Below are positions 45,844-57,549 of a stretch of 64,000 nt of DNA, piece by piece. Below the pieces are notes generated by a model, which saw only the letters and a program-made list of their open reading frames with translations, ran no database searches and was not told the DNA's origin. The stretch's first letter is position 1, and each line of letters begins with the position of its first letter. The position numbers were made by a program, and so were the translations under genes. Source of the stretch: Thermoplasmata archaeon. Lineage in GTDB: Archaea; Thermoplasmatota; Thermoplasmata; Lutacidiplasmatales; UBA184. The stretch covers positions 64,001 to 128,000 of the forward strand of contig JAGWLG010000001.1 of the NCBI GenBank assembly GCA_028864975.1. The letters run 5' to 3'.

Positions 45844-47343
45844 TCAGCGACCGGTGCGCAGCCGCGGGGAAGCCACGCCCACGACCGGGTCCGTCTCCAG
45901 CCGTCGCTCGAGGTCGTGGATAGCCTCCGTTTCCATACGGAGCGCAGATCGATGGCGAAGCAAGGCTCGCTCGAGCAGTAGACGGTCGTGAGCAACCTCG
46001 CCCCAGGCGCTCCCCCCGAAGGTCCTCCTCCGCTCGGGCTCCTGGTGCGGCGCGGGGGGGATCCAAGCGCTCGCCTTGAGCTCGGGGAAGCTGCGGTACC
46101 ATTCGTCCATCGTGAGCTCGCCCCAAGAGCGGTGGGCATGCTCGAGGTCCACGAGGAACCGTGCGACGCGCCGGTGCGCCTCCCGGAACGGGACCCCGTT
46201 CCGCGTGAGCTCGTCCGCGAGCTCGACGCTCGCCGTCGGGGAGGCCACACCGTGCGGTGAGGGGGAGGTGTGGAAGCGAGCGGTCCGGGCCATGGGGGCG
46301 AGGACCCGCAGGGAGCGCTCGGCCCTTCGAACGCCCTCGAACAAGAGGGGCTTCAGCGTCTGGAGGTCTCGGTTGTACGAGAGGGGTAGCCCCTTGAGGG
46401 TGATGAGGTGGGCCGCGCCGAGCCCGATGAGCGGGCCGGCCTCGCCGCGGAGCAGCTCGGCCATGTCCGGGTTCCTCTTGTGCGGCATCAGGCTGGACGT
46501 GGTGACGAAGGCATCGTCCAGGTGGATCCTCGCGACCTGGGGCGTCGACCAGAGGACCCACTCCTCGGCGAGCGAGGACAGGTGGACCCCCAGGATCGCG
46601 AGCGAACCCAAGGTCTCGCTCGCCGAGTCCCGGTCCGAAACGGCGTCCATGGCGTTCGGATGGGGCTCGCGGAAGCCAAGGGACCGGGCGGTGAGGTGTC
46701 GGTCGAGCGGCAGCGAGCTTCCCGCGACGGCCCCTGCGCCCAGGGGGCTGTAGACCATCGACTCTCGGATCCGCTTCAGGCGCGTGGCGTCGCGGGAGAG
46801 CCTTCGCGCGTGGACCTGGAGGATCTGCGCCAGGTAGACCCGCTGGGCGTCCTGCAAGTGGGTCGTCGCCGGGACCACGTAGCGCCCCTGCGGCCCCGCC
46901 GCCTGGTCGAGGAGCGCCTGCGCCGTGTCCAGGATGAGCCCTTCGAGCCGAAGGAGGGCGTCCCGCAGGTAGAGGGCGAGGTCCGTCGCGACCTGGTCGT
47001 TACGGCTGCGTCCCGTCGGCAGCCGCGCGCCCACGTCCCCCAGACGGGCCGTGAGCGCGGATTCCACGTTCATGTGGACGTCCTCGAGCTCGGGGTCGAG
47101 CCGGAAGGTCCCTGCCTCCGCCTCTCGGCGGAGCCGGACCAGTTCCCGCACGAGCGCGCGGCCCGCCGGGAGGGGGATGAGCCCCTGCCGCGTCAGCATC
47201 CGGGCGTGCGCGAGGCTCCCCAGGAGGTCGAACGGGAGGAGGACCGTGTCCTCCTTCACCGAGGCGCCGAACTCGGCCGCCTCAGGGTGGGGTGGGTGGC
47301 GAAACCTTTCCCGAAGCAGGGAGGGCCTCGCGCTCCTCGGCAT
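45844..47343 (-). CDS. argH: Argininosuccinate lyase
   Basis: EDVHMNVE, GRSRNDQ, THLQ, SSLMPHKRNPD, LPLSYNRDLQ, GVPFREAH. Confidence 0.95.
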   Translation of the reverse strand: MPRSARPSLLRERFRHPPHPEAAEFGASVKEDTVLLPFDLLGSLAHARMLTRQGLIPLPAGRALVRELVRLRREAEAGTFRLDPELEDVHMNVESALTARLGDVGARLPTGRSRNDQVATDLALYLRDALLRLEGLILDTAQALLDQAAGPQGRYVVPATTHLQDAQRVYLAQILQVHARRLSRDATRLKRIRESMVYSPLGAGAVAGSSLPLDRHLTARSLGFREPHPNAMDAVSDRDSASETLGSLAILGVHLSSLAEEWVLWSTPQVARIHLDDAFVTTSSLMPHKRNPDMAELLRGEAGPLIGLGAAHLITLKGLPLSYNRDLQTLKPLLFEGVRRAERSLRVLAPMARTARFHTSPSPHGVASPTASVELADELTRNGVPFREAHRRVARFLVDLEHAHRSWGELTMDEWYRSFPELKASAWIPPAPHQEPERRRTFGGSAWGEVAHDRLLLERALLRHRSALRMETEAIHDLERRLETDPVVGVASPRLRTGR

Positions 47344-48574
47344 CCGTGAGGGCCTCCCTCCGACGCGCATAAGCCAAGCGGTTCGCGAGCCCGAAGAGGT
47401 GGATGAACCCCTCGGCCGCCTCCTGACGGAACGTGGAGGTCCGGTCGTACGTCGCGAGCTCGTGGCTGAGCAGCGAGAAGGGAGAGCGGCGTCCGACGAC
47501 CCGGGAGGTCCCCTGGAAGAGACGGAGCGTCACCTGCCCCGTGACCGTCTCCTGAGTGCTCGCAACGAAGGAGCTGAGGGACTCGCGGAGCGGACTGTAC
47601 CACATGCCCTCGTACACCGTGTCGGCGAACCGGCGGTCCACCAGGCCCTTGAAGGAAAGGAGGTCGCGCGGGAGGACGAGGGCCTCCAGCGCCTGGTGCG
47701 CCTGCACGAGCGCGATCGCAGCGGGGCACTCGTACGTCTCGCGCGACTTGATCCCGACGACCCGGTCCTCGACGTGGTCGATCCGACCGATGCCGTGGGC
47801 GCCCGCCTTCTGGTTCAGGGTCTGGATGAGGTCCACCGGCTCGAGCGACCGGCCGTTCAGGCTGATCGGGGCGCCGCGCGAGAACCCTACGACCACGTCC
47901 TCGGGGACCTTTGGCCACTTCTCGGGGTGGCTCGTCCACTGGAAGACCTCCTCCGGTGGGGCGGAGCCGGGGTCCTCAAGACGTCCGCCCTCGACCGAGC
48001 GTCCCCACAGGTTCTCGTCGACGGAGTAGGGCGACTCGGGCTTGACGTGGATCTTGAGCCCGTGCTCCCGCGCGTAGGCGATCTCGTCCTGGCGGTTCAT
48101 GTTCCACTCCCGGACGGGCGCGATGATCGACAGGTGGGGGGCGAGGGTCTGGACGCCCACGTCGAAGCGGACCTGGTCGTTCCCCTTCCCCGTGCACCCG
48201 TGCGCGACGGCGTCGGCGCCCAGCCGCAGGGCGGCGGAGACCAGATGGCGGACGATGAGCGGGCGGGCTAGGGAGGTGGAGAGCGGGTAGACCCCCTGGT
48301 AGAGGCAGTTCGCCTGGAGGGCGGGAAAGAGGAACTCCTCGGCGAAGGTCACCTTCGCATCCTCGAGAAAGGCCTCGCGGGCCCCGTTGATGGGCGCGCG
48401 CTCCACGGCGTCCTCAAGCTCCCCTTCCTGGCCCACGTCGACGGTGAGGGTGGTCACCTCGGCGCCGTAGTGTTCCTTGATCCAGGGGATGGCGACCGAC
48501 GTGTCGAGTCCTCCGGAGTAGGCGAGCACCACGTGTTTGAGCTTCCCGGCCATGTTCTTCCTCTTGGGTTTCAC
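47282..48574 (-). CDS. argG: Argininosuccinate synthase (start GTG 48574 or ATG 48553)
   Basis: LAYSGGLDTS, HGCTGKGNDQVRF, YSVDENLWG, GIKSRETYE. Confidence 0.97.
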   Translation of the reverse strand: MKPKRKNMAGKLKHVVLAYSGGLDTSVAIPWIKEHYGAEVTTLTVDVGQEGELEDAVERAPINGAREAFLEDAKVTFAEEFLFPALQANCLYQGVYPLSTSLARPLIVRHLVSAALRLGADAVAHGCTGKGNDQVRFDVGVQTLAPHLSIIAPVREWNMNRQDEIAYAREHGLKIHVKPESPYSVDENLWGRSVEGGRLEDPGSAPPEEVFQWTSHPEKWPKVPEDVVVGFSRGAPISLNGRSLEPVDLIQTLNQKAGAHGIGRIDHVEDRVVGIKSRETYECPAAIALVQAHQALEALVLPRDLLSFKGLVDRRFADTVYEGMWYSPLRESLSSFVASTQETVTGQVTLRLFQGTSRVVGRRSPFSLLSHELATYDRTSTFRQEAAEGFIHLFGLANRLAYARRREALTDAEEREALPASGKVSPPTPP

Positions 48575-49446
48575 ACTGCTCCCGGTCCCGCAGGGATAGG
48601 GAGCAGAGGAAGGGAGGTCGCGGCCGATGAGCGGGGAGGGGCTTGACGCGGCTCGGGAACGACCCAGGTGCCGCCGCGAGGGGTCCCTTCCGAAGGGACG
48701 AGGTCCAGGGTACCGATCCAGACCCCCCGAGCCCCCTCGGACAGCATGCGAAGCGCCCCCTCTAGCTTGGGGATCATTCCACCGTGGACCGTCCCATTCT
48801 CGATGAGGGCTCTCGCCTTGGACGGCGTGAGCCGCTCGATCGGTGCTCCATCCGTGCCCCGGACCCCCGGGACGTCGGTTACAAGCAGGAGATCGCCCCC
48901 GACGGCCCCGGCGATCCCTGCCGCGAAGAGGTCGGCGTTGACATTGAGAACGCCCCCTTTCCCGTCGGAAGCGAGCGGGGCCAGGACCGGCACGGACCCC
49001 AATTGGAACAACGCGAGGAGCAGCGTGGGATCGACACGCGCGGGTTCGCCCACGGCACCTAGCCGCCCCTCCTGGACGTCACGGGCGAGCAGAAGGTCCG
49101 CCGAGACCCCCGAGAGCCCGACGGCCCGCAGGCCCGCCTCATTGAGCGCCGAGACCAGGCGGAGGTTCACCGTCCCCGCGAGCACCCCTTCGACGAGCGG
49201 GAGGACTTCCGGAGGCGTGACGCGCTGTCCATCGACCTTCTCGACGGGGAGGTGGAGACGGGCGGAGAGCTCCGAGACCTCCTCGCCTCCGCCATGGACC
49301 AGGACGAGCGGCCCGCTGCGCCGCGCCTCGGCGACGACCCAACGGACCAGCTGGTCGAGGGCCGGACCGGGGCGGACCTCCCGTCCTCCGACCTTGACCA
49401 CACGCGGGACCCCCGTCAGGGGTCCCACCGCCTTCGCGAGCCGCAT
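48571..49446 (-). CDS. argB: Acetylglutamate kinase
   Basis: VVKVGG, VHGGG, GQRVT, NVNAD, TDVPGV, GGMIPKL. Confidence 0.93.
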   Translation of the reverse strand: MRLAKAVGPLTGVPRVVKVGGREVRPGPALDQLVRWVVAEARRSGPLVLVHGGGEEVSELSARLHLPVEKVDGQRVTPPEVLPLVEGVLAGTVNLRLVSALNEAGLRAVGLSGVSADLLLARDVQEGRLGAVGEPARVDPTLLLALFQLGSVPVLAPLASDGKGGVLNVNADLFAAGIAGAVGGDLLLVTDVPGVRGTDGAPIERLTPSKARALIENGTVHGGMIPKLEGALRMLSEGARGVWIGTLDLVPSEGTPRGGTWVVPEPRQAPPRSSAATSLPLLPIPAGPGAV

Positions 49447-49471
49447 CGCTCTCGTTCCCAAGTCCTCGCCC

Positions 49472-50731
49472 CTAGGTCCGGTACTGGGCGTTGATCTGCA
49501 CGTAGCCGTAGGAAAGGTCGCAGCCCCAGGCGGTCGCCCGCGCCGGTCCGTTCCCCAGCTGGACGTCGAGGACGACCTCTTCCAGCCGCTGGAGGACGTT
49601 GTGGAGGCGGTGGCCCTGGCCGTTGTCCAGCCCCGGGGCCGGGGTGCCGTGAAGGATGAGCGGCCAGTTCTTCGGCCCGTCGACGAGCCGAACGTCCAGG
49701 TCCTGGGTCTCGAAGGTCGCGCCGGAGTATCCCAGCGCACAGGCGATGCGCCCGACGTTCGGGTCGGCGCCGAAGAGCGCCGTCTTCACGAGGAGGGAGC
49801 TCGCGACCGAGCGGGCCGCCTGACGTGCCTCGTGAGCGTCCGCCGCCCCGTGGACGTTCACGGTGAGGAGCTTGGTCGCCCCTTCCCCATCGCGGGCGAC
49901 GGAACGGGCCAGGCGCTCGAGGACGTAGGCGACCCCCCGGGCGAGCGCGGGGTCATCGTCGGCGAGGGCTCCCCCCGCCTCGCCGTTGGCGAAAGCGAGC
50001 ACGGTGTCGTTCGTCGAGGTGTCCCCGTCGACGCTGATCATGTTGAACGTGCGGTCCGCCTCCCGCGTGAGGAGGCCCTGCCACCCCGGCGTGCTGACCC
50101 GCGCGTCGGTGGTCAGGAAGGCGAGGGTGGTGGCGTGAGGAGGTCCCACCGAGGGGGCGATCATGCCGCTCCCCTTGGCCATTCCGCCCAGGCGGGCACG
50201 GGTGCCGTCCGCAAGGCGGACCGAGACCGCGGCCTCCTTCGTGCGGGTGTCCGTGGTCAGGATCGCCGTCGCGGCGCGCGTCGAGGCGGGACGATCGGAG
50301 GCCAGCGCGTGCACCGCCTGGGGCAAGTGCGATTCGACGCGCTCGACCGGGATGCGCGGGCCGATCACGCCGGTGGCCGCGTGGTAGACCGAGCCCTGGG
50401 GAAGCTTCAGCGCCCCTTCTGCGAGCTCGATGACGCGGCGCGAGTCGGCGAGCCCCTCGGGGCCGGTCAGCGCGTTTGCGACGCCGCTCACGACGACGAG
50501 GCCGCGGGCCTCCCCGGGGTGCTCCCGCAGGAGCCCTTCGCAGATCTCGACGGGCGCCGCACGCACGCGATTCGTTGTGAAGAGGCCGGCCACCGTGGCC
50601 GGTCTCTCGCTCACCAGCAGCGCGAGGTCAGGGCGGAGCGACCGCTTGATTCCGCAGGCGAGTCCGCTGGCCCGGTAGCCCTTCGGGAAGGTGATGCCGT
50701 GGTCCGAGACGGAGAACTCCCCGAGGCTCAT
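49472..50731 (-). CDS. argJ: Ornithine acetyltransferase / N-acetylglutamate synthase
   Basis: GIK..PDL, FTTNRVRAAP, TGVIG, ILTTDT..K, KGSGMIAP..AT, DGDTSTND, DGEGATK, WGCDLSYGYV..N. Confidence 0.96.
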   Translation of the reverse strand: MSLGEFSVSDHGITFPKGYRASGLACGIKRSLRPDLALLVSERPATVAGLFTTNRVRAAPVEICEGLLREHPGEARGLVVVSGVANALTGPEGLADSRRVIELAEGALKLPQGSVYHAATGVIGPRIPVERVESHLPQAVHALASDRPASTRAATAILTTDTRTKEAAVSVRLADGTRARLGGMAKGSGMIAPSVGPPHATTLAFLTTDARVSTPGWQGLLTREADRTFNMISVDGDTSTNDTVLAFANGEAGGALADDDPALARGVAYVLERLARSVARDGEGATKLLTVNVHGAADAHEARQAARSVASSLLVKTALFGADPNVGRIACALGYSGATFETQDLDVRLVDGPKNWPLILHGTPAPGLDNGQGHRLHNVLQRLEEVVLDVQLGNGPARATAWGCDLSYGYVQINAQYRT

Positions 50732-51759
50732 GGCCCGAGCCCTCCTGCGGGTAGCCCATCCGTCTCGGGAACGCCCAGCATCAGGTTCGCGTTCTGGATG
50801 GCCTGCCCCGCGCCCCCCTTCACCAGATTGTCGAGAGCGCTGTAGAGGACCCCCGACGGAGGCGCGGCCTCCGTCGCCAGGTAGCAACGGTTCGACCCCA
50901 CGGCCCAAGGCAGGCGTGGGATGCCGCCCACGCGGACGAAGGGCTCGCTGGCATAGGCGGCCTCGAGCGTGGGGTTCCACGAGGAGAACGAGGAGGACTC
51001 GACCCCAGGGGCGTAGATCGAGCAGAGGAGCCCACGGACCACGGGAACCAGGTGCGGGACGAACGTGAGCTGCGGGCCCTCGCCCGAGGCGACCCCGGAG
51101 AGCTCGCTCAGCGCCTGGCGGATCTCCGGCACGTGGCGGTGGTTCCCTCCTCCGTAGGGGTTGACGGAGGCCCCCGCGAGCGGGTGATGCGTGGCGGGGG
51201 TCGGCGAAGCGCCCGCGCCCGAGCTCCCGCTCTTCGCATCGACGACGATGTGCGAGGGGAGGAGCCTCTTCTTCGCGAGAGGCAGGAGGGCCAGGAGCGT
51301 CGCGGTCGGGTAGCAGCCCGGGTTCGCGAGGAGCTTCGCTCCTCTGACCGCGTCGCGGTCGATCTCGGGGAGCCCGTAGACGGCTTGGGCGAGCCCGTCA
51401 GGGTCCGAGTGTGGCCGTCCGTAGGTCGCCTCGTAGGCCGCGGGGTCCTTCAGCCGATAATCGGGACCGAGGTCGACGACGCGGATGCCGCGGGAGCGGA
51501 GCGAAGGGGCAGTGCGCAGCGCCTCGCCTTGGGGGAGGGCGAGGAAGGCCAGGTCCACATCGAGCGACGAAGCGTCCGGCTCCAACTTGAGCGCGTGGCC
51601 GTCCGCCAGCCAGGGGCAGATGCGGTCGAGGGTCTCTCCGGCGTGGGATTGCGAGACGGCCTGCTTGAGGAGGAGCGAGGGGTGCGAGGAGAGGAGCCTC
51701 AGAAGCTCTCCGCCCAAGTACCCGCTCGCCCCAACGACCCCAACCGTACGTGTTGTCAT
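50728..51759 (-). CDS. argC: N-acetyl-gamma-glutamyl-phosphate reductase
   Basis: GASGYLG, YGLPE, NPGCY, SGSSGAG, HRHVPEI, DNLVKGGAGQA. Confidence 0.96.
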   Translation of the reverse strand: MTTRTVGVVGASGYLGGELLRLLSSHPSLLLKQAVSQSHAGETLDRICPWLADGHALKLEPDASSLDVDLAFLALPQGEALRTAPSLRSRGIRVVDLGPDYRLKDPAAYEATYGRPHSDPDGLAQAVYGLPEIDRDAVRGAKLLANPGCYPTATLLALLPLAKKRLLPSHIVVDAKSGSSGAGASPTPATHHPLAGASVNPYGGGNHRHVPEIRQALSELSGVASGEGPQLTFVPHLVPVVRGLLCSIYAPGVESSSFSSWNPTLEAAYASEPFVRVGGIPRLPWAVGSNRCYLATEAAPPSGVLYSALDNLVKGGAGQAIQNANLMLGVPETDGLPAGGLGP

Positions 51760-51917
51760 GAGAGGTGGGCGGTGGTGGGGGACTCCTTGGAGGAAGAGAG
51801 ACGCGCCGTCGAACTTCCCCTTCGCGTCGCGAGAGTGACCGCGCGGCGCCTCGACGCTCCGTGGGACCGTCAGCGGTCGCTCGAGGGACGTCGTGGGTCG
51901 CGGCTGTTCCGTGGGGA

Positions 51918-52646
51918 TTACGGATGTCCCGAGGGCGACTCGCGCCGCAGGGGCTCGTCGCCGCCTTGCGGATGTGGGTGGACCAGGTCGCCCAGCACCT
52001 GGAAGGCCCCGAGCAGGTCCTTCTCCTCGAGGACGAACGTGCTGTCGGTGTGCGAGCTCACGATCTCGAGGCAGTTGATCCCGCGTCGCGCGAGCGCGTT
52101 CGCGAGGAAGGCCAGCACGCCTGGGGTGCGCACGATCGAAGAGGGCGAGCGGACCGTAAGGGCGGCCAGTCCCCGGAAGATGTCGATGACGTAGCCCTTG
52201 CCGAGGCTGGGGACCACGCTCGTGAGCAGGTCGTCCTCGAGCAGGATCGTGAGCGCGCCAGGGCCCTGCAGGAGCTGGAGCAGGTGCCGTCGGTCCTTGA
52301 GGAGCTCCCCCGCGGCCTCGTCGACCCGGAGCAGGACCTCCCAATCGTTGCGGGCCGCAATGATCGCGACCCTGGTGCGGACCTCGATCCGGGAGCCGTG
52401 GATGACCTGGAGGATCCGCTCGTCCTGGGCGACCTCCTGCTGCATCTGCCGCTGGTAGCGGCGGCAGGCGACGGTGACCGCCTCCTCGTTCTTCAGACCC
52501 TTCTCCTCGAGGATCCTACGGGCGAGCGCGGTGAAGTTCACGACGTCCCAGGCGAGGCAGTCGCGGATGGAGGGGTGCTCATCGATGTACCTTCGGGTGA
52601 TGTCCGCCGCGGTCGGGCCTTCCGGCTTCGGCGGGATACGAGGCAT
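51918..52646 (-). CDS. Archaeal HTH-like + ACT-domain protein, putative amino-acid-responsive regulator
   Basis: TRRYIDEHPSIRDCL..NFTALAR N-terminus; ACT-like C-terminus TPGVLAFLANALARRGINCLEIVSSHTD. Confidence 0.8.
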   Translation of the reverse strand: MPRIPPKPEGPTAADITRRYIDEHPSIRDCLAWDVVNFTALARRILEEKGLKNEEAVTVACRRYQRQMQQEVAQDERILQVIHGSRIEVRTRVAIIAARNDWEVLLRVDEAAGELLKDRRHLLQLLQGPGALTILLEDDLLTSVVPSLGKGYVIDIFRGLAALTVRSPSSIVRTPGVLAFLANALARRGINCLEIVSSHTDSTFVLEEKDLLGAFQVLGDLVHPHPQGGDEPLRRESPSGHP

Positions 52647-52837: not shown

Positions 52838-55800
52838 TTGAGAAACCATCCCCTGGACGCTTCCCTCCCCAGGCCGGATGGGCCACGTGCCCCGCATGGC
52901 GGGAACCCGCCAGCCCGACGGGTCCTTGGGCGTGGAGTTCGGGAGCTCCGCATCTTGTTCCCGCTGCTGGTCTTCCTCCTCGTCCTCACGCCGTCCTTGG
53001 GAGGCGGGGCGGGGACGGGCCAGGAGATTCTCCACCGCTCGCAAGCTGTAGCAGGGGCTATCTCCGCTCCCGGGTCCACCTCGGTGACACCCTCTCCGCC
53101 AGGGCCCCTCCTTTGGTCCTACTCGGACGGCGGTTCCCCCGACCCGATCCGATCCCAGGCTGGAGTGGCGAGCTTCTCGCTTGGTTCGATCGGCTATGTT
53201 GATGTCATCGGGGGTTCGGGTCCCTGCGGCCTCTACTGCAACGACGATTGGGAAGTGAACCTCAATGCTCTTGCGTACCCAACTTGGTTCCATGAGCCCC
53301 CGCCCACGAACGTCGGACGGAAAGGGCCGAGCTTGGCCTTCGACCCCGCCTCCAACGAGCTCGTGCTATTCGGGGGACTGAACGGTACCCTTGGAGCGCT
53401 CAACGATACCTGGACGCGCGTCCTCTTGGTTCGAGGATGGGCGCCCGTCGCGGGGGCTGCGCCGCCGCCCCGGTGGGATGCTGCGTTCGCCTACGACCCG
53501 GCCCTCGGGGGAGTGGTCCTGTTCGGGGGCCTCGGGCCGGGAGGACAGCCGCTCGGGGACACCTGGCTGTTCCGTGGCGACCGGTGGACGCCCATCGTAT
53601 CCTTGGTGTCCCCTGCAGCCCGGTCTGGCAGCTCACTAGTATGGCAGGGCGACGAGGAGAGGATGACCCTTTTCGGGGGAAACGGGAGTGCTGGCCCCCT
53701 CTCGGACACCTGGGGACTCGCCTCAGGCGGGTGGTACCCTTTGTCGCCGACCCTCACGCCCTCGCCCCGCACCCTGGCGGCCGTGGGTTCGGACGGGGCG
53801 GGGGACCCGGTGATCTTCGGTGGATGGGGAACACCCGGATACCTCAACGACACGTGGATCCTCTACGGCGACAACTGGAGCGAGCCGACCGTTGAGACCG
53901 TAGCAAGGCCCGCCGCAGCTGAGGGCGCGATCCTGGTCCCTGACGCTGGTGCCACCCCCAACGACCTCCTACTGTACTGGGGAAAGGGTGAGGGCGGATA
54001 CTCGATTATCACGTGGGGGCTCCGGGTCCAGAACGGTGGGAGCCCTTCGTCCCCCCCTCCTCTTAGGGTGGCGGCGCAGGCCTCAGGATCGAACGGAACG
54101 AGCCCGTTCGCAGCATCCTTCGAAGCATTGGGGAGCGGGGGGGTGCCCCCCTACGGCGAGGTGTGGGGCTTCGGGGACGGCACACCACCTTCCATCAACC
54201 CGTATCCTCGGCACGTCTTCGCCTCTCCGGGCAATTATCTCGCCCACCTTCTCCTGCAGGACACCGCTTCTCCCCCGGCGACCGCGAGCGCCGACCTGGC
54301 GGTCCACGTCCATGCCCCTAACGGATCGTTCGCGGTCAACGTCTCGGCGACGGAGCGGTCGGGCCCACCTCCGCTCACGACGACCCTATTTGCCACCCCG
54401 TCGGGGGGTATGGGCCCGTACAGCTACCGCTGGCTCTTCGGAGATGGCACACCATCCTCTCGAGCACCCTCCCCGACACACATCTACAACGCTTCAGGGA
54501 CGTTCGTCGCGCGGTTGTTCCTCAACGACAGCCGTGGAGCGAGCGCCAACTTCTCCTACACGATGCGTGTCGTGGCCTCGGGACTTGCGGTCGCCTTCAC
54601 CGCCTCGCCGTCGCAGGGCCATCCCCCCATCACGGTGGCCTTCCACGCGAGCGCCCAGGGCGGAGACCCCCCGTACCATTACTTCTGGAGCTTTGGCGAC
54701 GGGAACTCGTCGTACGGTGGGAACGCAAACGCCACCAACCTCTACGGGAGGGCCGGGACGTTCGAGATCCGGGTCACGGTCCTCGACGCACAGGGAAGTA
54801 ACGCGACTGCAAGCGAGGCCATCCTCGTAACGCCCCCACCCCCGTTCGTCCCTCCCCCCCCCACGCTCTTGGAGAAGGTGGCGCGCCTCCTCGCCCCGGT
54901 GGTTCGAGGGCTGTCAAATCCCTGGGTCCTCGGTTCGCTAGTCCTGGTGATCGGCGGCACCGTGACGCTTCGCTGGGGACTCCCGACCGTCCGGCTCCGA
55001 AGTTCCGTTCGCCGGGGGAAGTCCTCCCTCAATCATGAAGCGACCTGGGGGGTCGCGGAGGTGGAGGTCGTGGTACACGGATTTCGCCACGGAGCCCAAC
55101 TCTCCGACCTCCTCGGCAGGCTTCGCCCACTTGTAGAGAGGGACGCCCGCCGGCTCGCTTCCCACCTCACCTGGCATCCCGGTTCAGCTGCCACTTGGTT
55201 GGCCCGTCGTGCGTTGCTTCTCGTACCCCAACTGCTCATTGCGGCCACGGTCTTGTTCATTGGGCTGAGGGCCCTGCCGGGGCTGGTCGTAGGCCCACCG
55301 ACCTTCCCCGGAATCCCGTTCGGCCCCCTGGGGTTCCTGCAGGCATGGTGGAGCTACGTCTCGGAGCTCCTGGGCGGGGGGCTCTCCGACCCCTATCTTG
55401 CTGCGAACCTCCCCTACACGCTGCAGTTCATGGGAGTGATCGTGCTCCTGAGCGCAATCATTTCCTACCCCTTGGGCGTTCTCGCGGGCTGGAAACAGGG
55501 TGGGGTCGTCGATCAGTCCACGAGGTTCGCGGGAGTCCTAGCGAACTCGTTCCAGATCTTCGTCGTCGCGCTCCTGACCCTGGTGGGAGCATGGCTGTGG
55601 TACTACCAGACCACGAACGGGGACTTCCTCGTCTCGAGCCTGCCTTCCATCCTCTGGGACGACCAGAACATGGGAGGGATCCCTCCTTGGGTGTCGGTCT
55701 TGCAGGCGACGTCTCCCACGGGCTTCCCGCTCGTCGACGCGCCCCTTCACGGCGCGTGGGCGTTCGAGCAGGTGATGTTGCTGAAGATCCTTGTCCAGGC

Positions 55801-56236
55801 TCTGCCCATCGCCGGAGTCTACTCGGCGATCTTCCTCCGGTATGCGAGGCTGGCAACCCTGGAAGCCGCTCAAGCCTTCAGCAACACCGGGGGGAGAGCG
55901 AAAGGGCTGGCTGAGAGGACCCTGCTTTGGCGGCACACCGCACGGCGCATTCAACCCACCTACGCTGAGATCTTCGGCGCAACCTTCCCGGTCCTCCTCT
56001 CGCTCCAGGTCGTGGCGGAGTGGTTCTACGACGACCAGGGCGTCGGGAGCCTCTTCGTCGTCCAGCTGCCCTGTCTCTCCTCGCTGGTGAACTGCACGCC
56101 TATCCAGGAGGCGATGACCTCGCTCACGATCGGGCGACTCGCCTTTCTGCTTCTCCTTCTCACCTTCGTCGCGAACCTCGTGGGGGATGCGGTCTCCAGG
56201 GCACTTGACCCGGTGGGGAGGGTCGCATCAAGATGA
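52838..56236 (+). CDS. Fusion protein: signal/TM - Kelch beta-propeller - 3 PKD domains - TM - DppB/OppB-type ABC permease
   Basis: About 6 repeats of R..A.AYD....VLFGG....NDTW; three GG.PPY...W.FGDG PKD units; WLARRALLLVPQLL..LPG; RAKGLAE..LWRH EAA-like loop; TTG start inferred. Confidence 0.85.
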   Translation: MRNHPLDASLPRPDGPRAPHGGNPPARRVLGRGVRELRILFPLLVFLLVLTPSLGGGAGTGQEILHRSQAVAGAISAPGSTSVTPSPPGPLLWSYSDGGSPDPIRSQAGVASFSLGSIGYVDVIGGSGPCGLYCNDDWEVNLNALAYPTWFHEPPPTNVGRKGPSLAFDPASNELVLFGGLNGTLGALNDTWTRVLLVRGWAPVAGAAPPPRWDAAFAYDPALGGVVLFGGLGPGGQPLGDTWLFRGDRWTPIVSLVSPAARSGSSLVWQGDEERMTLFGGNGSAGPLSDTWGLASGGWYPLSPTLTPSPRTLAAVGSDGAGDPVIFGGWGTPGYLNDTWILYGDNWSEPTVETVARPAAAEGAILVPDAGATPNDLLLYWGKGEGGYSIITWGLRVQNGGSPSSPPPLRVAAQASGSNGTSPFAASFEALGSGGVPPYGEVWGFGDGTPPSINPYPRHVFASPGNYLAHLLLQDTASPPATASADLAVHVHAPNGSFAVNVSATERSGPPPLTTTLFATPSGGMGPYSYRWLFGDGTPSSRAPSPTHIYNASGTFVARLFLNDSRGASANFSYTMRVVASGLAVAFTASPSQGHPPITVAFHASAQGGDPPYHYFWSFGDGNSSYGGNANATNLYGRAGTFEIRVTVLDAQGSNATASEAILVTPPPPFVPPPPTLLEKVARLLAPVVRGLSNPWVLGSLVLVIGGTVTLRWGLPTVRLRSSVRRGKSSLNHEATWGVAEVEVVVHGFRHGAQLSDLLGRLRPLVERDARRLASHLTWHPGSAATWLARRALLLVPQLLIAATVLFIGLRALPGLVVGPPTFPGIPFGPLGFLQAWWSYVSELLGGGLSDPYLAANLPYTLQFMGVIVLLSAIISYPLGVLAGWKQGGVVDQSTRFAGVLANSFQIFVVALLTLVGAWLWYYQTTNGDFLVSSLPSILWDDQNMGGIPPWVSVLQATSPTGFPLVDAPLHGAWAFEQVMLLKILVQALPIAGVYSAIFLRYARLATLEAAQAFSNTGGRAKGLAERTLLWRHTARRIQPTYAEIFGATFPVLLSLQVVAEWFYDDQGVGSLFVVQLPCLSSLVNCTPIQEAMTSLTIGRLAFLLLLLTFVANLVGDAVSRALDPVGRVASR

Positions 56237-57549
56237 CCAGGGCGAGCGAGCGTCAAACACGAAGCGAAGGTGAGGTGAAGGAACACGTAGCCGCCCCAGA
56301 CCAGCGTCCTGGGAGCGAGACGCCCCATGGGCAGAGCGTGACCTCTCCTCCGGCCAGGAGGGCGGAGAGGCACGAGACGGCTCCCACCGGTGGTGACCCC
56401 CATCCGGCCTCCCCACGGTCCCTGAGACCTCCTTCGAGTACCGTTGGAGGCGCGTCCGAGACGCACCGTAGGTCGCGCCGCAGCTCCCGAAAGGCCCGCG
56501 GGTTGCGCGCCCGGTGGCGAAGATTCCGTCGGGGGGTCTTGCGGCCTAGGGCCCGCGCCTGGGCCAGGTTGTGGGGCAACCTGCCTTTGGTGACAGGACT
56601 GCTGCTACTCGCGTTCTTTGTCGCCGCGGGACTGGTGGCCCCCCTCCTCTACCCGGGCAGCGGAGGTTCGCTCGCCGTGGACCACGGGGTCTTCGACAAC
56701 TGTTCAGCTCCTTCCCCACCGACCGCTCAGCTCGCACCCTTCGGGGGGGGCCCACATCCTCTGGGGCAGACCGCCCATCTCGGGCTCGACGTGGCCCAAG
56801 GGCTGTTGCTGGGAACCCGGTGGGACCTTCTCTTGATCGCCTTCCTCGTCGGAGCCTCGGCGCTGGTGGGAGCCCTCCTAGGGGCTATCGCCGGGGCGAT
56901 GGGGGGACGGGTCGAGAGCATCCTTTCACCGATCCTGGATGGCACCCTGGCCTTTCCTCCCTTGATGGTCATGGTCACGGTCCTTGCGGTGACCTACTCG
57001 GGCCCCCTCGAGGGATCCCGAATGGTTGTGTTCCTCTTCGGCATGCTCGCCGTGCTCTGGGCCCCCTTCGCCCAAGGGGTTAGGGCTCAGGCGCGTTCCA
57101 CCGCACACCAAGCGTTCGTGGAGGCGGCCAAGGCCTCTGGGGCGAGATGGCCGAGGATCCTCCTCCGCCACATTCTGCCCAACTGCTCTGCGCCGGTCCT
57201 GGCCCAGGTTCCAAGCTCGGTCTTCAGCGTCTTCTTCGTCCTGGGATTCTTCCAGTACTTGGGTCTCGTTGCCGAGAGCAGCGTGGTTCCGAACTGTGGT
57301 ACGGTTAGGGTCGGGCTTGGGGTGGTACACAGCATTCCCTCGGGCCTGTTCCTGATCGTCCCTTCGGTACGGTTTCCCGAGTGGACCTGGACGTTGGCGA
57401 ACGGGCTCTCTGGGTTCACCGTCGGATCGATCCTACCGGAGTGGTGGGGCTACCTACTGCCAACTGCCTGGATTGCGCTCTTCCTTCTGGCCGTCACCCT
57501 CTTCTGCGACGGGCTCGCCGCGCACCTCTCGCCGTTCCGTGGCCGATAG
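56233..57549 (+). CDS. DppC/OppC-type ABC permease with long basic N-terminal extension
   Basis: HPLGQT..GLDV..G.RWDL, FVEAAKASGA..ILLRHILPN; ATGA overlap with the fusion gene. Confidence 0.9.
   Translation: MTRASERQTRSEGEVKEHVAAPDQRPGSETPHGQSVTSPPARRAERHETAPTGGDPHPASPRSLRPPSSTVGGASETHRRSRRSSRKARGLRARWRRFRRGVLRPRARAWARLWGNLPLVTGLLLLAFFVAAGLVAPLLYPGSGGSLAVDHGVFDNCSAPSPPTAQLAPFGGGPHPLGQTAHLGLDVAQGLLLGTRWDLLLIAFLVGASALVGALLGAIAGAMGGRVESILSPILDGTLAFPPLMVMVTVLAVTYSGPLEGSRMVVFLFGMLAVLWAPFAQGVRAQARSTAHQAFVEAAKASGARWPRILLRHILPNCSAPVLAQVPSSVFSVFFVLGFFQYLGLVAESSVVPNCGTVRVGLGVVHSIPSGLFLIVPSVRFPEWTWTLANGLSGFTVGSILPEWWGYLLPTAWIALFLLAVTLFCDGLAAHLSPFRGR

Follow-up and report, generated by a model that had tools for sequence, protein, structure and literature searches.

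The window analyzed here is a stretch of 64,000 nucleotides from a Thermoplasmata archaeon (GenBank assembly GCA_028864975.1, contig JAGWLG010000001.1, positions 64,001–128,000). It carries two overlapping genes, termed B' and C', that encode permeases of the OppB/DppB and OppC/DppC types. B' is a fusion in which a Kelch β-propeller on a stalk of PKD domains precedes an additional transmembrane (TM) helix and a permease core. The fusion is real and conserved and is not a product of read-through. In the reading that we favor, to which we assign a probability of roughly one half, B'C' is a tethered-receptor module of a type I ATP-binding cassette (ABC) importer that would be energized by an ATPase encoded in trans, likely OppDF, with the propeller replacing the free binding protein. 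This reading draws on the loss of the element that engages the binding protein, the conservation of both coupling helices, the invariant pairing of the two genes away from binding-protein and ATPase genes, and the presence of an OppDF pair elsewhere in the genome.

Architecture of the B'C' Pair

B' is an open frame of 1132 codons without a single stop, and its predicted start, a TTG at 52838, is the sole in-frame start 5' of the N-terminal hydrophobic helix. The start of C' lies inside the stop codon of B', in a 4-base ATGA overlap visible on inspection at 56233–56236, and the codon-position G+C is coding-like across both genes. In Pfam, B' matches Kelch families (residues 211–364), three PKD domains up to about residue 660, and BPD_transp_1 (residues 877–1125), the last with a score of 26.4 bits, equal to the cut-off. 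C' matches BPD_transp_1 at 50 bits, together with a weak match to OppC_N. The top NCBIfam models are of the OppB/NikB type for B' and of the OppC/NikC type for C', both scoring far under the equivalog cut-offs. A first-pass annotation, made from the letters of the window alone, had described a single uninterrupted frame, its ATGA overlap with a DppC-like gene, and the domain anatomy of the product. The frame and the overlap were borne out, and the domains and their coordinates proved correct almost to the base when compared with Pfam and an AlphaFold2 model. The features are collected in Table 1.

Table 1. Positions of the B'C' genes and their features in the window.
Feature	Positions	Strand	Basis
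B', fused gene: ectodomain and OppB/DppB-type permease, 1132 aa	52838–56236	+	Open frame, Pfam, homologues of the same architecture
N-terminal hydrophobic helix, aa 35–55, putative signal peptide or membrane anchor	52940–53002	+	Model helix 35–50
Six-blade Kelch β-propeller, aa 90–400, predicted extracellular	53105–54037	+	Pfam Kelch, model pLDDT ~90, Foldseek
Stalk of three PKD (Ig-like) domains, aa 408–665	54059–54832	+	Pfam PKD and PKD_4, model β-sandwiches
Extra TM helix TM0, aa 691–714, outside to inside	54908–54979	+	Model helix 677–727, hydrophobic stretch followed by basic linker
Cytoplasmic basic linker, aa 715–782, 11 K+R	54980–55183	+	Model, charge count
OppB/DppB-type permease core, six TM, aa 783–1125	55184–56212	+	BPD_transp_1, profile matches, model
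Short Pro/Gly connector at the scoop site, aa 819–829	55292–55324	+	Alignment with canonical Thermoplasmata OppB, HMM alignment with E. coli DppB
EAA/coupling-helix region of B', aa 1009–1040, E-AAQAFSNTGG-RAKGL-AERTLLWRHTARRIQP	55862–55957	+	Family alignment
C', partner: OppC/DppC-type permease, 438 aa	56233–57549	+	Open reading frame, Pfam, NCBIfam, ATGA overlap with B'
Arg-rich low-complexity N-tail of C', ~112 aa, predicted cytoplasmic	56233–56568	+	Comparison with other partners
EAA/coupling helix of C', aa 293–318, canonical	57109–57186	+	Alignment

Permease Core and Loss of the Scoop

The B' family profile matches E. coli DppB (8z1v_A, E 1.6e-24), M. tuberculosis DppB (8wd9_B), and E. 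coli OppB (8z21_A). The model helices from residue 783 onward and the positive-inside pattern predict a six-TM core with both termini in the cytoplasm. In E. coli DppB, a periplasmic scoop (α1-loop-α2, residues 32–62) lies between TM1 and α3 and reaches into the DppA cleft, and DppBCDF needs DppA to be active (PMC12136057). The TM1–α3 segment of B' is a Pro/Gly connector of 11–15 residues with no scoop, and canonical OppBs of Thermoplasmata retain a long TM1–α3 loop with a G-L-[DN]-x-P signature. This signature is present in four of the five canonical OppBs versus 1 of 43 members of the fused family, and in that one it occurs at a different position. The loss of the scoop is the best evidence, at the level of sequence, that B'C' would depart from the usual mode of engaging a family-5 binding protein. 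It gives indirect backing to the first-pass idea that the stalked propeller may replace the binding protein. The outside loop between TM3 and TM4 (PTGFPLVDA-LHGAW) is highly conserved but was dropped as a hallmark of the family, since its core motif is also found in canonical OppB of Thermoplasmata and in DppB of E. coli when these are aligned and is thus common to DppB/OppB at large.

Coupling Helices

In the coupling region of B', residues R1020, G1023, L1030, W1031, H1033, R1036, and P1040 are either invariant or conserved to 90% or more across the family, whose EAA consensus (E-P-x-V-x-A-A-R-A-R-G-V-x-E-R-T-L-L-W-R-H) is canonical for the Opp type. The segment of B' itself has the same length as in its relatives and differs by substitutions only, with R-A-K-G-L and L-L-W-R-H kept. 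The earlier description of an altered loop, if taken to mean a degraded one, was overstated; the segment is a lineage variant with its core residues intact. In C', V296, E297, A301, G303, H313, and P316 are invariant over 24 partners and canonical OppC sequences, and its EAA segment (FVEAARASGA...RHILPNS) hardly differs from that of this genome's canonical OppC, in line with the canonical loop first ascribed to this DppC-type partner. Since both coupling helices are conserved, an ATPase is expected to dock there.

A Family of Propeller-Bearing Permeases

A word-based search retrieved 15 long homologues with 35–61% identity in the permease part, 14 of which carry a propeller ectodomain N-terminal to BPD_transp_1 (11 Kelch and 3 PQQ). 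An exhaustive search with the permease part alone as query, clustered at 50% identity, yielded 51 clusters at E < 1e-30, most of them 850–1300 residues long with the permease match at the C-terminal end. Below these clusters the scores drop steeply to ordinary DppB-like permeases at about E 1e-7. BPD_transp_1 was detected in all 46 members that were scanned (best E 1e-39), Kelch repeats in 21, PKD domains in 19–20, and a PQQ/BamB-like propeller with CarboxypepD_reg in 23–24. As nearly all of the roughly 51 clusters are long proteins with the permease at the C-terminus, and as the fusion is present twice in this genome, the early argument against an accidental read-through is upheld.

When the permease part was placed on a maximum-likelihood tree, the PQQ type formed one side of a single branch with a support of 99/100. 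That one branch separates the PQQ from the Kelch type indicates that the head-and-stalk unit was exchanged once, with both forms persisting. Within the Kelch clade, the mean pairwise identity is 38.7% for the propeller, 40.9% for the permease, and 19.6% for the TM0–linker region. At the scoop site, the PQQ/CarboxypepD_reg clade has a conserved four-cysteine loop (C-x-L-x3-4-C-x2-4-C-x-W-S-x3-C), a possible place for disulfides or for a metal site outside the cell.

In species-representative genomes 21 loci turned up, all with titles of uncultured Thermoplasmata metagenome-assembled genomes (MAGs), two of them as Candidatus Lutacidiplasmatales. When 300 genomes of the phylum were searched with the profile, ordinary OppB was caught as well at 90–220 bits, so that the tally does not represent the distribution of the family; only the matches above about 370 bits (own genome, G067, and G206) are true members. 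Frames of 767–815 residues in G028, G231, and G249, considered as ectodomain fusions, were rejected as ordinary B–C fused permeases within a full operon.

The genome from which the window derives comprises 3.6 Mb in 124 contigs and is 89.6% complete. Its second copy of the fused gene, on contig C13, is a frame of 1196 residues followed by a partner of 401 residues. This pair sits between a gene of the penicillin-amidase family (888 aa, L006:2001-4667, minus strand) and a gene for a 767-residue protein with a weak DUF1214 match (L006:11349-13652, plus strand); a 183-aa open reading frame (ORF) with no family match ends 19 bp 5' of the paralogue.

Linkage of the Partner and Organization of Related Loci

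A C-type gene directly follows the fused gene in 23 of 23 related loci from other genomes, some of which hold two pairs in tandem (L027 and L030). Single-chain Kelch–PKD–B–C fusions of 1180–1320 residues occur as well: P0023 and L033 (L033:64-3600) were confirmed by Pfam, and P0038 and P0039 were judged to be B–C fusions from their length and two matched stretches. The conserved adjacency with gene overlap, together with these natural B–C fusions, shows that B' and C' work together and would form a heterodimeric channel. Partner number and length vary. At L038:7605-11997 (Thermoplasmata MAG DBS1-1.bin134), one B' gene is followed by three tandem C-type genes (330, 382, and 362 aa). The Arg/Ser/Pro-rich N-tail of C' is found only in its closest relatives, namely the partner of the same-genome paralogue and that at L019, and the other C-type partners of fused genes measure 330–360 residues.

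With queries from the own genome, tblastn detected no OppD, OppF, or binding protein in the fetched flanks of the 23 related loci, apart from a match to an unrelated ABC gene of the exporter type (L003). In the neighborhood of B'C' in the window there is likewise no linked binding-protein gene and no linked ABC ATPase gene. Thus, neither a linked family-5 solute-binding protein (SBP) gene nor linked OppD/OppF genes accompany the pair in the window or at the 23 loci. The canonical Opp loci of the relatives (L012–L018 and L040) have SBP, B, C, D, and F side by side. The possibility raised in the first-pass annotation, that orthologues might stand beside a normal dppA and ATPase genes, does not apply to the 23 loci. 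Its statement that the system has no binding protein or ATPase holds locally and across the flanks of the family, but is not supported in the sense of having no ATPase whatsoever, given the conserved coupling helices and the OppD/F of this genome.

The neighboring genes are not conserved among the related loci. Some fused pairs have free-standing homologues of the Kelch/PKD ectodomain immediately upstream, encoded on the opposite strand: at L026:2820-6217, L027:2816-6219, and L030:2669-6465 (all minus strand), and at L038:2317-3882; in L026, L027, and L030 two match regions stand in tandem.

ATPases and Binding Proteins Elsewhere in the Genome

The genome contains exactly one ATPase pair of the OppD/F type (with the oligo_HPY domain), which belongs to a canonical operon on contig C104. 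There, OppD/F stand next to OppB and OppC and to a divergently oriented gene for a PKD+SBP_bac_5 protein of 1348 residues, the only one of its kind in the genome. Counterparts of dppA, dppD, and dppF, which the first-pass annotation had suggested looking for, are thus present on another contig. OppD/F were found in eight of the eight carrier genomes searched, versus 91 of 301 in the phylum sample. B/C pairs outnumber OppD/F pairs by 3:1 in the own genome and by at least 5:1 in G301 and G302, each of which has at least four fused pairs versus a single OppBCDF operon, with only weak SBP_bac_5 matches.

Several parts of the C104 operon (G000, L007:2115-13915) are oversize, the binding protein among them. 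Its OppC has 640 residues, with an N-terminal TM helix, an ectodomain of about 130 residues, and a second TM helix; OppD has 529 residues, and OppF has 749, about 360 of which follow oligo_HPY and have no Pfam match. In another family of the phylum (G028, L040:1888-8580), a 2×PKD+SBP_bac_5 protein of 774 residues and a B–C fused permease of 808 residues precede OppD and OppF. PKD-decorated binding proteins and B–C fusions therefore occur in the phylum apart from the propeller family.

Ectodomain and Topology

The AlphaFold2 model of B', built on 21 homologues, has a mean pLDDT of 73, and of about 90 in the propeller. Its strands form a β-propeller (residues 91–397) and three β-sandwiches (410–664); its helices span residues 35–50 and 677–727 (including the hydrophobic stretch 691–714), two lie in the linker, and the six-TM core begins at 783. 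In Foldseek, the propeller matches the Kelch domains of KLHDC2/3/10 and LZTR1 with target-normalized TM scores of 0.67–0.79, RMSD values of 3.0–3.7 Å, and E values as low as 1e-15, and six Kelch blades close into a propeller. No SBP family match and no periplasmic-binding-protein fold was detected in the ectodomain by Pfam, the family scan, or Foldseek.

The predicted topology is consistent with an exposed head. Six Lys and Arg residues lie in residues 1–34, ahead of the hydrophobic helix. The predicted outside loops of B' have no Lys or Arg, versus 11 in the linker, and 14 of the 15 N-x-S/T sequons fall within the ectodomain. As TM0 is predicted to run from outside to inside, the permease core would begin in the cytoplasm, as it normally does. 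The model and the charge distribution thus support the view, already put forward from the letters alone, that the extra TM helix makes the topology of B' self-consistent. Between TM0 and the permease, members of the Kelch clade have a long linker, and those of the PQQ clade one of about 20 residues.

The first blade contains a C-G-x-Y-C-N-D-T-W motif (53222–53240, residues 129–135), and at least 90% of the Kelch clade keeps its cysteines C130 and C134. In the blades of the propeller, N-D-T-W sequons are repeated and conserved, and their recurrence suggests N-glycosylation. A complex prediction of the propeller (residues 88–405) with the membrane domains of B' and C', run without controls, gave a score of 0.00 and speaks neither for nor against docking.

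Genes Surrounding B'C'

The window has a G+C content of about 67% and an archaeal gene content (RFC small subunit and others). Upstream of B', on the opposite strand, lies an arginine-biosynthesis cluster (argC, argJ, argB, argG, and argH). At 45844–52646 (minus strand) its products are an argH-like lyase, argininosuccinate synthase, an amino-acid kinase, ArgJ, and a semialdehyde dehydrogenase. The cluster is preceded by a gene with DUF7523 and ACT domains that is divergent from B'. Downstream of C' are genes for a GNAT acetyltransferase, SppA peptidase, RFC, MoaC, MoaB, and thioredoxin.

Proposed Mechanism

B'C' would constitute the membrane half of a type I ABC importer of the peptide/nickel type (Opp/Dpp/Nik, the PepT family, TC 3.A.1.5), a transporter family whose usual cargo in archaea is peptides or oligosaccharides. 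B' is predicted to display the six-blade propeller on its three-PKD stalk outside the cell, to recross the membrane through TM0, and to form a heterodimeric channel with C'. Because both coupling helices are kept, its power most likely comes from ABC ATPases whose genes lie elsewhere; the OppDF of C104 is the best candidate, although it may be another ATPase encoded in trans. The single OppD/OppF pair of C104 would then be shared by the canonical permease pair and two propeller-capped pairs. Given that B' has no scoop and that no binding-protein gene is linked to it, the putatively glycosylated propeller may take over in place of a free family-5 protein, capturing the substrate and handing it over and/or giving the gating signal. 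It is from these features that we infer import as the function of the pair, the receptor role of the head, and the identity of the ATPase. A wider proposition, that such modules are binding-protein-independent importers with the propeller (Kelch or PQQ-like) as receptor and that several of them time-share one OppDF, is a tentative one, which we regard as possible rather than probable.

Several observations weigh against the favored reading. The coupling region of B' contains family-specific residues, such as the invariant W1031, that are absent from canonical OppB, so that a different ATPase partner is possible. OppD/F are present in five of the five sampled genomes of the family to which the genome of the window belongs, whether or not a fused pair is present, and related genomes are not independent; the co-occurrence is therefore weak evidence. 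Moreover, at 89.6% completeness, further ATPase or SBP genes of the genome may be unassembled. A stalk of three PKD domains might keep the propeller well away from the mouth of the channel, and with such a long stalk, capture at a distance fits better than docking in the manner of an SBP. Finally, the paralogues do not differ more in the propeller than in the permease (63% versus 55%), a pattern unlike that of binding proteins with diversified specificity.

Alternative Explanations

The best-surviving alternative, although an unlikely one, is that B'C' is an ordinary importer module that uses the free, membrane-anchored PKD+SBP_bac_5 protein and the canonical OppDF, with the ectodomain as an accessory: a surface-layer spacer, an adhesin for a polymeric substrate, or a dock for secreted peptidases. 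The only PKD+SBP_bac_5 protein of the genome does adjoin the canonical OppBCDF, and binding proteins of this phylum are PKD-decorated as well. One related locus adjoins a gene for an S53 peptidase carrying PKD domains, the C13 paralogue lies near a penicillin amidase, and the long stalk suits action at a distance. Nevertheless, the scoop that engages the binding protein is missing across the whole family, the SBP_bac_5 matches in G301 and G302 are weak despite their many fused pairs, and the neighbors vary among loci.

It is improbable that B'C' is not an importer but an ATP-driven mechanotransmitter, whose ectodomain performs extracellular work in the manner of MacB or FtsEX. This idea would account for a large conserved ectodomain, conserved coupling helices, the missing binding protein, and a propeller conserved like the membrane part. 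However, the fold of the membrane domain is that of type I importers (BPD_transp_1, with DppB/OppB as the closest structures) and not that of FtsX/MacB, and no mechanotransmitter role is known for it. In addition, a separate TM0 with a long and poorly conserved linker would be a poor transmitter of force. A MacB-like system in the strict sense was rejected for its wrong fold, since B' shows BPD_transp_1 and not the four-TM arrangement of FtsX/MacB.

The odds are similarly slim that B'C' works with no ATPase at all, as a membrane scaffold, a sensor, or a passive channel. The flanks of the 23 loci, free of a matching ATPase gene, and the highly divergent permease of B', with its BPD_transp_1 score at the cut-off, are compatible with such a role. 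Yet few parts of either subunit are as well conserved as the EAA helices, a fact that makes little sense unless an ATPase docks there, and OppD/F are present in every carrier genome checked. On the same two grounds, the scaffold or signaling role offered as an option in the first-pass annotation looks less likely than ATP-driven transport.

A negligible chance is left for an artefact of assembly or annotation that joined a surface-protein gene to a permease gene, as a fragmented MAG and a high G+C content, which yields long spurious frames, might suggest. Conservation already refutes it, as no fewer than 46 distinct proteins, drawn from many independent assemblies, carry this fusion; in addition, a designed topology is indicated by TM0 and the positive-inside pattern, and the coding-like codon-position G+C runs throughout. 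A pseudogene reading of B'C' was rejected.

Comparison with Known Transport Systems

The closest characterized homologues of the B' core and C' are DppABCDF and OppABCDF of E. coli and DppABCD and OppABCD of M. tuberculosis (PDB 8z1v, 8z21, 8wd9, and 8j5q). Common to them and B'C' are six-TM cores, a heterodimeric pairing, EAA coupling helices, and a PTGF-x-L-x-D loop preceding TM4. In contrast, B' has an N-terminal ectodomain of 690 residues, an extra TM helix, and a linker, lacks the scoop, and is very divergent in sequence, with about 25% identity and a BPD_transp_1 score at the cut-off; moreover, the pair has no linked binding protein or ATPases.

A capture domain tethered to the transmembrane subunit is found in GlnPQ and OpuA, which B'C' would most resemble in its mode of action and which serve as a working analogy for the mechanism, although the domains fused there show the fold of periplasmic binding proteins, come from different ABC families, and sit on short linkers, whereas the head of B' is a propeller on an Ig-like stalk (PMC8025302, PMC11065425). 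The P2 loop of MalF in MalFGK2 is also an Ig-like extracytoplasmic domain in a type I permease that contacts the receptor, but it is an inserted loop of about 180 residues that binds a free binding protein; the domain of B' is N-terminal, four times larger, and includes a propeller (PMC6906923).

Among solved folds, the nearest to the propeller are the six-blade Kelch domains of KLHDC2, KLHDC3, KLHDC10, and LZTR1, which bind peptide termini or proteins on their top face. They share 14–19% identity with that of B' and are cytosolic ubiquitin-ligase adaptors, and the likeness is one of fold; the peptide-binding analogy is thus only a lead.

Shared ATPases are known from MsiK of Streptomyces and MsmK of streptococci, each serving several permease pairs; these are sugar (CUT1) systems with homodimeric ATPases that keep their binding proteins. 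Like B'C', their permease pairs are encoded without an ATPase, and they are energized by one encoded elsewhere, as would be the case for B'C'. They differ in the homodimeric ATPase and in having binding proteins of their own, and here it is a heterodimeric OppDF that would be shared.

Literature searches for Kelch, PKD, or propeller domains with an ABC permease in archaea found no description of this design, in agreement with the initial impression that the architecture is undescribed. [quoted passage not shown]

Significance

Type I ABC importers are held to need a binding protein of one fold class, which delivers the substrate and switches on the ATPase. The family described here is a conserved archaeal clade that has dropped the scoop and the linked SBP and ATPase genes and added a propeller on a stalk, in places with at least four copies per small genome, and it apparently represents a conserved, unstudied design for nutrient uptake. 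If the clade imports a substrate, it would provide a second way to feed and gate this class of transporter. Receptor-propeller modules that share OppDF would, if true, provide a natural example of an ATPase shared within the peptide family and the inverse of the bacterial design, in which many binding proteins serve one channel. These archaea are abundant uncultured heterotrophs in soils, sediments, and springs, and the module may therefore be central to their uptake of peptides or glycans.

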